In this document: positions 31,978 through 35,446 of the stretch, piece after piece
Layout: every line of letters starts with the position of its first letter
Position numbering within the stretch: position 1 is the first letter of the stretch
NCBI GenBank assembly: GCA_048937405.1
Contig: JBHLNF010000004.1
Coordinates: 229,125-293,124, forward strand
Source: Promethearchaeota archaeon
Lineage (GTDB): Archaea; Asgardarchaeota; Lokiarchaeia; Sigyniarchaeales; SOKP01
Length of the DNA stretch: 64,000 nucleotides
Direction of reading: 5' to 3'
Notes under the pieces: model-generated
What the model saw: only the letters and a program-made list of their open reading frames with translations
Database searches by the model: none
What the model was told of the DNA's origin: nothing
Position numbers and translations under genes: made by a program

Positions 31978-32850
31978 ATGGTTGATATAACCAAAATTGT
32001 AAAAGAAATACAAGAGAAATATAAAGTAATTGGCAGAACTGAGGAATTACGTCAAATTGTTTTAGCACATTCAGTAAGTAAAAATATTTTAATAGAAGGA
32101 GAAGTGGGTGTTGGAAAAACTAGATTAGCTAAAGCCATTGCAGAATATTATGATTCCAGTTTTTATCGAGTCGATTGTAGTGAAGAATTACTTCCTCATA
32201 ACCTTGTTGGATATTTTGAACCACCATTAGTAATTGCTAAAGGATATATTGAAGATTCCTACAAATATGGTCCACTAGCCTTAGCTATGATGAATGGAGG
32301 GTGTTTATTTATAAATGAAATAAACCGTATGCCAGAAAGCACTCAAAACTCATTATTAACCTCATTAGATGAAGGTATACTTAAAATTCCCAAATTAAAA
32401 ACAATTAAGGCTCATGAAAATTTCTTTGTTATTGCTACTCAAAATCCATCTGCGCATGTTGGAGTCACAGTATTAGGGGAAGCACTAAAAGATCGATTCA
32501 TATGGATAAATTTAAATTATCAAAAACCTGATGAGGAAATATTAATTATCAAACAAGAAGCTAATTTAAACAGTGGTAATACTGATAAAATTGCCTTACT
32601 TTCACAACAAATTATACAAATAACTAGAGAAAGTACTTCCATCAGAAGAGGGAGTTCAATAAGAGGTGCTATTGATTTAGCTACCTTAATTAATCAATAT
32701 GATAATAACAATAGTACTAAAAATTGGATTCAAGCAGCAGTAATGGCACTATATAACAAAATCGAACTTGAAGATGGATTAACTCAATCTAAAAAAGAAA
32801 TAATTACAAATATTGTTTTAACTGTACTGAATAAATCGGATTTTCAATAA
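31978..32850 (+). CDS. MoxR/CoxD-like AAA+ ATPase
   Basis: GEVGVGKT, Walker B variant FINEINR, ATQNP and EALKDRF motifs; ends KSDFQ*. Confidence 0.9.
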   Translation: MVDITKIVKEIQEKYKVIGRTEELRQIVLAHSVSKNILIEGEVGVGKTRLAKAIAEYYDSSFYRVDCSEELLPHNLVGYFEPPLVIAKGYIEDSYKYGPLALAMMNGGCLFINEINRMPESTQNSLLTSLDEGILKIPKLKTIKAHENFFVIATQNPSAHVGVTVLGEALKDRFIWINLNYQKPDEEILIIKQEANLNSGNTDKIALLSQQIIQITRESTSIRRGSSIRGAIDLATLINQYDNNNSTKNWIQAAVMALYNKIELEDGLTQSKKEIITNIVLTVLNKSDFQ

Positions 32851-33959
32851 TCGATGATTTCTCTGAAGAAGAATTTGAAGAGAATGAGAAAAGGCTGCAT
32901 GTTAGACTTACTGAAAGTCGCCCAGATAAAGAAATATTGGAGTATGAAATAATCCGAAAGAAAAGAAAAAAACCAGATTACTATAAACACCTTGCTAACA
33001 CATTAGATTATAAGCAAATAAAGGAGTTAACATATCTAGCAATACAACATAAAAATCTTGAAGCTTTAATGGGATTATTAAAGGCAAATGTGTATGCTTC
33101 AACAGATGCTTTAGACACTGAAGAAGGTGTAAAATTTTTCTCAGAAAAAGCTGCAGAATCTGGAGATTTCATGCCAGAAATTTATTTTTTTATTAGACGT
33201 CCCATCTCAGAGAAATATAAATCAATTTTCAGAAGATTAGCACGTCAAAGTATTCTAAAATTATCTTTAAAAATTACAAGTAGAGGAATAAGAGGTCATT
33301 TTAAAAAGACTGTTCCTTATTATCAAATGGGTAGGCCTGAATTTAGTATGGATGAAACTATTCAACATAATCCATTAAAAATTTATGAAAAAAGTTTAAA
33401 TTATCAAGACATATATGGAATTGAAAGAAAGCGACAAAAAAGAAAAGTAGTATTGGTATTGGATACAAGTGGCAGTATGTATGGACGTTTGTTGCTTAAT
33501 GCAGCACTTACAACATCAGTTTTAGCATATAACATGGAAAAAGAAGATTTTTCCATAGTTTTATTTAATTCAACTGCAATGGTCATGAAAAAAATTAATC
33601 AAAAAAAACCTATAATTTCTTTAATTGATGATATTTTAGATTCTGAAGCTGTTGGCTTTACAAATATCTATATAGGACTGGAAAAAGGTCTGAAAGAATT
33701 AAGAAAAATAAGAGAAAATAGAAAAAGTCGTTTTGGTATATTAATAACAGATGGTATTTACAACCGCGGTGAAGATCCCGTAATTCTAGCAAAAAAATAT
33801 CCAAAATTACATGTTATAGGAATGCCTGCTGATAATGATGCGGATCAAGGTATTGAGAAATGCAGAGAAATTGCAAAAGCAGGGAGAGGTAAGTTTTATG
33901 CCGTAAATGATTATAAAGAAATCCCACGAGCCTTAATAGAATTATTATCTCAAACTTAA
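32844..33959 (+). CDS. Acidic linker plus vWA-domain protein (CoxE/ChlD-like); possibly the -1 frame extension of the AAA+ gene
   Basis: MIDAS motifs DTSGS, GFTN and ITDG. The frame is open from 32835 (IIDDFSEEEFEENEKR), while the first canonical start is TTG 32937. Confidence 0.85.
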   Translation, partial: SIIDDFSEEEFEENEKRLHVRLTESRPDKEILEYEIIRKKRKKPDYYKHLANTLDYKQIKELTYLAIQHKNLEALMGLLKANVYASTDALDTEEGVKFFSEKAAESGDFMPEIYFFIRRPISEKYKSIFRRLARQSILKLSLKITSRGIRGHFKKTVPYYQMGRPEFSMDETIQHNPLKIYEKSLNYQDIYGIERKRQKRKVVLVLDTSGSMYGRLLLNAALTTSVLAYNMEKEDFSIVLFNSTAMVMKKINQKKPIISLIDDILDSEAVGFTNIYIGLEKGLKELRKIRENRKSRFGILITDGIYNRGEDPVILAKKYPKLHVIGMPADNDADQGIEKCREIAKAGRGKFYAVNDYKEIPRALIELLSQT

Positions 33960-34138: not shown

Positions 34139-34720
34139 ATATTTGAAAAAGATAATGACTATAAATATATTTTTAAAGTGGTTTTAATCGGGGCTGGTGG
34201 TGTAGGAAAGACTTGTATTGTTCGGAGATTATGTTATGATACATTCACTTTAGATACTCAATTAACTGTTGGAATAGATTTTTATACATATAATTTACCA
34301 ATAATAGTTGATGGCGAACAATCTAATGTGAGACTATCAATATGGGATTTTGGAGGACAAGCTCACTTTAAAACTCTATTTGACTATTATATTAAAGGAG
34401 CTAGTGGAATATTTTTAGTATTTGATTTATTAAAAATGCAAAGTCTTCTTGATTTAGACTGGTGGTATGACAAGCTAATAGAAAATAATATGATCAACCA
34501 ACCTAAAATTCTTATTGGAACAAAGCTTGATTTGAAGGAAAAACTGGATAAATTAAATGCAATTGATGATTCATATATTGATGAATTTATTAAAAAACAT
34601 GGTGAGCTCGATTTCATTAAAACATCCTCTAAAGATAATATTAATATTCGAGCAATTTTTAAAGAATTGGTAAAAAAACTATTAAATTTTCAAGGATTTG
34701 ACTATGAAAGATTGCTTTAA
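34139..34720 (+). CDS. Rab-like small GTPase (copy 1)
   Basis: YIFKVVLIGAGGVGKT, TVGIDF, WDFGGQ, TKLD and TSSK motifs. The N-terminus extends upstream of GTG 34178; proposed start is ATA 34139. Confidence 0.9.
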   Translation: MFEKDNDYKYIFKVVLIGAGGVGKTCIVRRLCYDTFTLDTQLTVGIDFYTYNLPIIVDGEQSNVRLSIWDFGGQAHFKTLFDYYIKGASGIFLVFDLLKMQSLLDLDWWYDKLIENNMINQPKILIGTKLDLKEKLDKLNAIDDSYIDEFIKKHGELDFIKTSSKDNINIRAIFKELVKKLLNFQGFDYERLL

Positions 34721-34873
34721 TTAAATCTGTTTATAGTTCTTCAATTTGAATAAAATATCTTTATAAAATTATATTGTTATATTTTTTATAATACAATAAT
34801 ACTTAGAGATGAAAGTCTCAAAATATTTGCGATTAGTATAAAAGAGTTATAAAATTGAAAAGGTGTATGAAAT

Positions 34874-35446
34874 ATACTAGGAGAAAAAGAACCACGCTAT
34901 ATATTTAAAATATGTTTGATTGGTGATGGTGGAGTAGGAAAGACATGTATAGCAAGAAGATTATGTTTTAATACTTTTAATGCAAATACCCAATTAACCG
35001 TAGGAATTGATTTTTATACCTATGATATCCCGATTTCAATTAAAGGCGAAGATTCTTTTATTAGACTCTCGTTATGGGATTTTGGAGGTCAAGAACAATT
35101 CCGAACACTATTCAAATATTATATCAATGGTGCCAATGGCATTTTTTTAGTTTTTGATTTATTAAGAATGGAATCACTCGTAAAATTGGACTGGTGGTAT
35201 GATAAGATAATTCAGCATGGTCTTAATGATAGTCCAAAGATTCTTGTTGGCACAAAACTCGATTTAGCTCAAACTGAAAAGCAATACAAAGTAGATAGAA
35301 TTATTATTGAGCAGTTCCTTAAAAATCACAATGAAAAAGATTATGTAGAAACATCTTCTAAAGATAACGTGAACATTCGAGATAGCTTTATAAAAATTGT
35401 TAAAAAAATATTAGATTCTCATGAATTTGATTATGATAAGATATGA
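34874..35446 (+). CDS. Rab-like small GTPase (copy 2)
   Basis: YIFKICLIGDGGVGKT, TVGIDF, WDFGGQEQF, TKLD and TSSK motifs. The N-terminus extends upstream of TTG 34916; proposed start is ATA 34874. Confidence 0.9.
   Translation: MLGEKEPRYIFKICLIGDGGVGKTCIARRLCFNTFNANTQLTVGIDFYTYDIPISIKGEDSFIRLSLWDFGGQEQFRTLFKYYINGANGIFLVFDLLRMESLVKLDWWYDKIIQHGLNDSPKILVGTKLDLAQTEKQYKVDRIIIEQFLKNHNEKDYVETSSKDNVNIRDSFIKIVKKILDSHEFDYDKI

Follow-up and report, generated by a model that had tools for sequence, protein, structure and literature searches.

Several cellular genes are known in which a ribosomal frameshift separates a short from a long product. The 23 frameshifted chlD genes that have been described carry poly-A slip sites, which gave 10–63% shifting in E. 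coli reporters (PMC3711429; PMC9227772), and dnaX makes tau and gamma, two AAA+ subunits of one complex, from a single gene, with the slip determining their proportion (PMC3711429). In Archaea, programmed −1 ribosomal frameshifting joins the two open reading frames (ORFs) of fucA1 in the cellular genome of Saccharolobus solfataricus (PMC8211752; PMC1616953), the only archaeal case reported according to a 2021 review (PMC8211752). The locus described here lies in a 64,000 nt stretch of the genome of a Promethearchaeota archaeon, one of the Asgard archaea (contig JBHLNF010000004.1, positions 229,125 to 293,124 of the forward strand; hereafter the window, numbered from its first letter). It consists of an ORF for a MoxR-type AAA+ ATPase and an overlapping, start-less frame that encodes a vWA domain. 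As judged from comparison of sequences, the two are very likely one recoded gene, read through programmed −1 ribosomal frameshifting.

The arrangement resembles that of chlD in several respects. The probable shift is mostly −1 and at the end of the AAA+ module, so that termination would give a short AAA+ protein and slipping an AAA+-acidic linker-vWA protein; in-frame fused relatives occur, the halves are annotated as two adjacent genes, and both −1 and +1 variants exist. Unlike chlD, the ATPase belongs to the AAA_3/AAA_5 (MoxR) family, the site is of the type X_XXU_UUY with a U_UUU core instead of poly-A, the hosts are Asgard archaea, and the neighbouring genes examined include no partner of the ChlH/CobN type. 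The likeness to dnaX lies in two AAA+ products from one gene, but the frameshift product of dnaX is the short one and here it would be the long one. The dnaX site is A_AAA_AAG, with an upstream Shine–Dalgarno (SD) sequence and a hairpin. The fucA1 site, A_AAA_AAT, is restricted to a strain and relatives carry full-length genes, whereas the present site is found across the phylum and would yield two products. The heptamer in the window is identical to G_GAU_UUU, the frameshift site of dianthoviruses and umbraviruses, which is used by eukaryotic ribosomes together with strong downstream RNA structures; it differs in that no such structure was found and that relatives can do without the first G. 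The same domain families, a MoxR AAA+ hexamer and an adaptor with a vWA domain and a metal-ion-dependent adhesion site (MIDAS), make up NorQ–NorD, CbbQ–CbbO, RavA–ViaA and CoxD–CoxE. Those pairs are two genes with starts of their own, while the adaptor here has no start and would be reached by recoding. Literature searches, including one for midasin in Asgard archaea, found no published description of MoxR/vWA or Asgard frameshifting.

In the window, the ATPase ORF (31978–32850, + strand, as for all features below) encodes 290 aa, the predicted short product, and its 3′ end reads AAA TCG GAT TTT CAA TAA. The stop codon (32848–32850) lies one codon 3′ of the heptamer G_GAT_TTT (32838–32844). 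The −1 frame is closed by a TAA at 32832–32834, just 5′ of the heptamer, and is open from 32835 to its stop at 33957–33959, starting with I-G-F-S-I-I-D-D-F-S-E-E-E-F-E-E-N-E-K-R. It contains no ATG, GTG or TTG ahead of the TTG at 32937–32939, and the intervening linker codons (32844–32936; S-I-I-D-D-F-S-E-E-E onward) are acidic and lack a canonical start. The part that a slip would add (32844–33959; linker, helical domain and vWA) amounts to 371 aa and a stop; added to the first 289 aa it gives a conceptual slip product of 660 aa, with ...NKSDF followed by SIIDDF... at the junction. Re-pairing of the A-site codon, UUU to UUU, is perfect at this heptamer; the P-site part is only near-canonical. 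Re-reading of the sequence confirmed the coordinates, phase, stop and heptamer given by the first-pass annotation, a model's reading of the letters alone, and its proposal that −1 frameshifting makes a 290 aa ATPase and an AAA+-linker-vWA protein of about 660 aa is supported by the phase, the slip core, the fused relatives and the lack of an own start described below.

A six-frame search of related genomes found the vWA ORF in 57 of 61 of them; at the scale of the phylum, 255 of 399 genomes have it. Measured between stops the frames are 360–397 aa long, and in close relatives the similarity begins at residue 1–2. The junction was compared in 108 orthologous loci from 24 Asgard families, with both halves placed by tblastn. 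The step from the AAA+ frame to the vWA frame is −1 in 100 of the 108 loci, which represent 20 of the 24 families, and this phase is kept though the length of the overlap ranges from 10 to 295 nt. The arrangement also occurs at L037 and L038, from two single-contig genomes of family f2, where the −1-frame linker reads S-[LV]-x-A-E after the junction F. A U_UUY core, within an X_XXU_UUY-type heptamer, is present in the correct phase in 99 of the 100 −1-phase loci and sits 0–2 codons (once 5) 5′ of the AAA+ stop; the remaining locus has A_AAC_CCT with a TGA immediately after it. Besides the core, the sites have in common that the 0-frame stop is close by. The same phase and U-run recurring in so many loci mean that the arrangement in the window is more than chance, and the alignment of orthologues that had been proposed as a check thus came out in favour of a conserved slip site.

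The invariant core of the site is U_UUU (T_TTT, 32841–32844, in the window), and the heptamer of the window is one variant around it. In the window's own family (48 loci) the heptamer is G_GAT_TTT in 38, A_GAT_TTT in 7, T_GAT_TTT in 2 and G_AAT_TTT in 1, and other families have the canonical heptamers A_AAT_TTT, G_GGT_TTT, C_CCT_TTT, A_AAT_TTC and T_TTT_TTA/C. The first-pass annotation had put its weight on the whole of G_GAT_TTT; the core is indeed conserved, while the first G is replaced by A or T in nine of the family's loci. Two loci of this family (L116 and L117, genus g22) carry T_GAT_TTT, in which TGA is the P-site codon of the −1 frame, so that this frame is not open until TTT. Such a heptamer is compatible with slipping and shows that the first three letters matter little. 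Across families the P-site codon always ends in T. The synonymous choices stay fixed even against codon usage: in a lineage of 62% G+C, TTT accounts for 12% of Phe codons and the site is nevertheless GAT TTT TTC. Multiplying the synonymous shares over 19 families gives about 10^-6.8, a rough value in which kinship is not taken into account.

If ribosomes pass from one frame to the other at this site, then the coding signal might be expected to change phase there, and this was examined by positional entropy among 31 loci of the same genus. On the 5′ side of the site the entropies of the three codon positions are 0.41, 0.22 and 0.98 in the 0 frame, the third position being the highest, and from the site onward the peak moves to the third position of the −1 frame. 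The point at which codon periodicity passes to the −1 frame coincides exactly with the slip site, and the −1 peptide is conserved beginning with the first post-slip codon. Over 29 linker codons (32851–32936, all 5′ of the TTG in the window), the −1-frame entropies are 0.22, 0.14 and 0.67; judged by this pattern, the start-less linker is under purifying selection in the −1 phase. The sequence at 32839–32863 is near-invariant in the same 31 loci, synonymous positions included, and GAT GAT TTC TC 3′ of the site is invariant at synonymous sites in the window's family.

Relatives in which both halves form a single ORF also exist, as the first-pass annotation had suggested looking for. A word-indexed search with the vWA ORF returned no longer, fused relatives. 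An exhaustive search of representative sequences gave 805 relatives, many of them proteins of 563–711 aa, and nine of the ten relatives scanned for domains combine AAA_5/AAA_3 and VWA in a single ORF. Single-ORF AAA+-linker-vWA versions span 588–732 aa and include L094 and L095 (family f24, with in-frame genes of 724–732 aa), L096 (family f21) and the metagenomic proteins P0027 and P0037. The slip product (residues 8–658) aligns with P0027 (621 aa; residues 9–620) as one high-scoring segment pair of 38% identity (E 4e-134). In a multiple alignment the junction F matches continuous sequence in the fused forms, and the halves are colinear across the junction. Several of the single-ORF forms have a much longer, insert-rich linker following the junction F.

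The strongest competing explanation is that of two separate genes, the vWA gene starting on its own, either by reinitiation at the ATA that overlaps the stop (32847, an ATAA overlap) or the ATC at 32850, or at the TTG at 32937, with no fusion being made. Most loci in the window's family do have an ATA at that place, and loci with a TGA stop have an overlapping TTG or ATG, but by family the overlapping codon is ATA, TTA, CTA or GTA, so that no start-like codon is conserved, and no SD sequence lies 5′ of it. The TTG at 32937 is present in just 5 of the first 30 loci of the same genus, and the 31 codons preceding it are under −1-phase constraint. More generally, the first ATG, GTG or TTG of the vWA frame has no fixed place: it can lie upstream of the site or as far as +609 nt beyond it (median +93 nt), in one locus (L068) 3′ of the MIDAS motif, and no conserved own start or SD for the vWA frame was found across the orthologous loci. 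Neither of the alternative starts offered by the first-pass annotation, ATA 32847 and TTG 32937, is therefore conserved. A GGAG, GAGG, GGTG or GGGG word does occur within 27 nt 3′ of the heptamer in 80% of loci against a background of 22%, which counts in favour of a separate start, but these purine-rich words (32851–32890 in the window, and equivalents) encode conserved acidic residues of the linker; the element may reflect that coding or may be a signal. Reinitiation would also leave the fixed −1 phase, the U-run and the synonymous T's unexplained.

A true two-gene junction is available for comparison in a paralogous pair on contig 7 of the same genome (MoxR, 313 aa, and vWA, 829 aa; L051:82-3516), with counterparts in L124–L138. 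In this pair the ATPase gene has a GGAGG at its 3′ end and the TTG start is conserved (ATG in 2 of 15 loci), and the phase drifts, being 0, +1 or −1 in different genomes of one genus. By its sequence the pair is an ordinary operon junction at the same divergence, and the locus studied here behaves differently. Taken together, two separately started genes appear quite improbable.

Slippage by RNA polymerase on the T-run, leaving some mRNAs with one U more or fewer, would also bring the frames together. This is known for dnaX in Thermus and has been discussed for the poly-A sites of chlD, with lengths of at least 8 cited (PMC3711429). Runs of T6–T8 are found at the site in several families, but the run is no longer than T4 throughout the window's family and T4–T5 in many others, far short of the cited lengths, and a phase-specific X_XXU_UUY with a nearby 0-frame stop suits ribosomal slippage. 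A transcriptional origin of the shift is accordingly very improbable.

A once-fused gene cut by a 1 nt indel, in nature or in the assembly, and left with no functional long product might be suspected from the existence of fused single-ORF relatives, but it is hardly conceivable given the same interruption in 100 loci of 20 families, purifying selection on both halves and the linker, and the absence of indel variants in contigs of two studies. The contigs came from four metagenome runs of those studies and showed no inserted or deleted letters over 32500–33300, which, together with the conservation, excludes the assembly indel that had been named as a risk. Summed depth in contigs of four sediment/metagenome runs goes up from about 45 to over 1000, a 20-fold spike, only at 32824–32904, because many co-occurring relatives share these letters.

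Some observations weigh against −1 frameshifting at this junction. The P-site half of the heptamer is non-canonical, with a −1 codon of GGA and in some relatives AGA or UGA. No convincing downstream stimulatory structure, either a strong hairpin or a pseudoknot, was found in the window or across the loci. The fold of the window is weaker than that of shuffled sequences (z = +1.4), and over the 60 nt 3′ of the site in 96 distinct loci the mean z is −0.45 compared with 0.02 in controls, a weak excess. The consensus fold (−7.9 kcal/mol) pairs the slip site itself with the downstream AUUGAGAA and shows no covariation, because its columns never vary. Families f18 (L106–L108) and f32 (L093) are in the +1 phase; the T-run there is T6 or T8, with CGG or CGA next to it on the 3′ side, and the f18 frame is opened by a TTG; these junctions may be +1 frameshift sites or may have real starts of their own. 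About nine loci with a TGA stop automatically have a TTG or ATG overlapping it in the −1 frame, and ordinary start-stop coupling may operate in them. Lastly, no RNA run is listed as containing the locus.

The ATPase matches Pfam AAA_3 with 74.7 bits (cutoff 27) and AAA_5 with 72.8 bits (cutoff 22), and it has a Walker A motif GEVGVGKT (32098–32121), a Walker B motif LFINE with N replacing D (32305–32319), a sensor-1 motif (32434–32445) and LKDRF (32485–32499), taken as the arginine finger; with these it belongs to the MoxR-type AAA+ ATPases. Its best single-domain PDB matches are MoxR (2r44, 62.6 bits), NorQ (52 bits) and CbbQ (45.6 bits). The Walker B motif has the form h-h-h-N-E(I/L)-N-R, with Asn for the usual Asp, throughout the family, including the fused forms of f24. 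The vWA domain (Pfam VWA, 41.9 bits, cutoff 23.8) covers residues 205–364 of the −1 frame (33447–33926). Its MIDAS consists of D-x-S-x-S (33462–33476), T (GFTN, 33654–33665) and D (ITDG, 33744–33755), and the corresponding residues D210, S212, S214, T276 and D306 do not vary among 19 homologues, placing it among the vWA/MIDAS adaptors. In the AF2 model of the −1 ORF (pLDDT 86), the first 25 residues are disordered and are followed by a helical domain (31–148) and a vWA fold (194–374). Fold matches of this model include BatB, NorD and CMG2, and the longest alignments are with NorD chains of NorQD complexes (249–265 columns, TMq 0.42–0.45).

Membership of ChlD/BchD was considered and rejected, the scores being 21.6 bits for TIGR02031 (cutoff 499.55) and 22.4 and 18.7 bits for TIGR02442 (cutoff 779.45); the match to Pfam Mg_chelatase is confined to residues 16–55. 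The first-pass annotation was thus right in naming a MoxR-like AAA+ protein and a vWA domain, while the chelatase genes it drew on are not the family in question, which is MoxR/NorQ-like. With midasin (Rea1/Mdn1) the predicted long product shares AAA_5 modules, a D/E-rich linker and a MIDAS domain, and the Rea1 MIDAS domain is the fold match of rank 21. Midasin as the closest relative of the ATPase was also rejected, as its E value of 5e-39 sums six AAA modules, the best of which scores 39 bits, less than MoxR. Neither the scores of the ATPase modules nor the fold matches gave evidence of a specific relationship to midasin.

Programmed −1 frameshifting at this site would proceed as follows. 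Ribosomes translating the ATPase ORF would reach GAU-UUU (32839–32844), and most would go on to read CAA and stop at UAA, releasing the 290 aa ATPase. A fraction would slip one base back on U_UUU, the Phe-tRNA re-pairing on UUU and the Asp-tRNA partly on GGA, and would read on from UCA in the −1 frame, through the acidic disordered linker, the helical domain and the MIDAS-bearing vWA domain to give the 660 aa protein. By analogy with NorQ–NorD, CbbQ–CbbO and ChlI–ChlD, the short form may build an AAA+ hexamer. The long form would join that hexamer with a vWA adaptor covalently attached, and the frequency of the slip would determine the proportion of the two forms. The MoxR/NorQ-like ATPase and the NorD-like fold matches lead to a working model of a remodelling ring in which some of the subunits would carry the adaptor through recoding.

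If this is correct, the locus would be the second archaeal case after fucA1 and a far more widespread one, in a housekeeping-type chaperone gene and in the archaea closest to eukaryotes. It would extend the principle of chlD, in which a short AAA+ and a long AAA+-vWA protein come from one gene, to the MoxR branch, and it suggests that tethering of an adaptor by recoding is a recurrent way of setting subunit ratios. There is also a consequence for annotation: hundreds of Asgard genomes have the vWA half annotated as a truncated protein from an arbitrary internal codon, and in some loci the called start falls beyond the MIDAS motif.

A broader scenario can be drawn, which goes further and is rather unlikely. 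It would see in the site an ancient, Asgard-wide slip that builds asymmetric AAA+ rings in which a few subunits of each hexamer have a MIDAS adaptor covalently attached. Instead of being fixed, the ratio could be tuned, for instance by the speed of decoding of UUU, CAA and the stop, or by the purine-rich 3′ element, and sites would be converted to +1 (a T-run and then CGN) or to in-frame fusion when another ratio is favoured. Were it true, no other cellular frameshift in Archaea would be conserved as widely, and the site would offer a model of stimulator-poor slippage on eukaryote-like archaeal ribosomes.

Downstream of the pair in the window are two Ras-family small GTPase genes (34178–35446). 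One or two such genes are present in most loci of the same genus (L002–L030); loci from other families showed none within about 9 kb. Directly upstream in the window are genes for MoeA, a MoCF_biosynth protein and a second MoeA, from which the first-pass annotation had proposed a chaperone for the maturation of W/Mo enzymes. Homologues of MoeA/MogA are found upstream in 5 of the 31 loci of the same genus, and 10 loci from other families have none within about 9 kb. A Mo/W-cofactor maturation system, as defined by conserved association with molybdenum cofactor genes, was rejected on these counts. The proposal is therefore not borne out by a conserved neighbourhood, though a similar set (MoaA, MoCF_biosynth and MoaC; L055:3863-5740) recurs beside the fused P0027. 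Recurring neighbours from metal-cofactor maturation hint at what the client might be and are a clue rather than a finding. HypF, a hydrogenase maturation protein, adjoins the pair in two lineages (L061:10624-12996 and L062:11206-13695), and in two other lineages the pair is adjoined by a TPR protein and an MTHFR-C-like protein.

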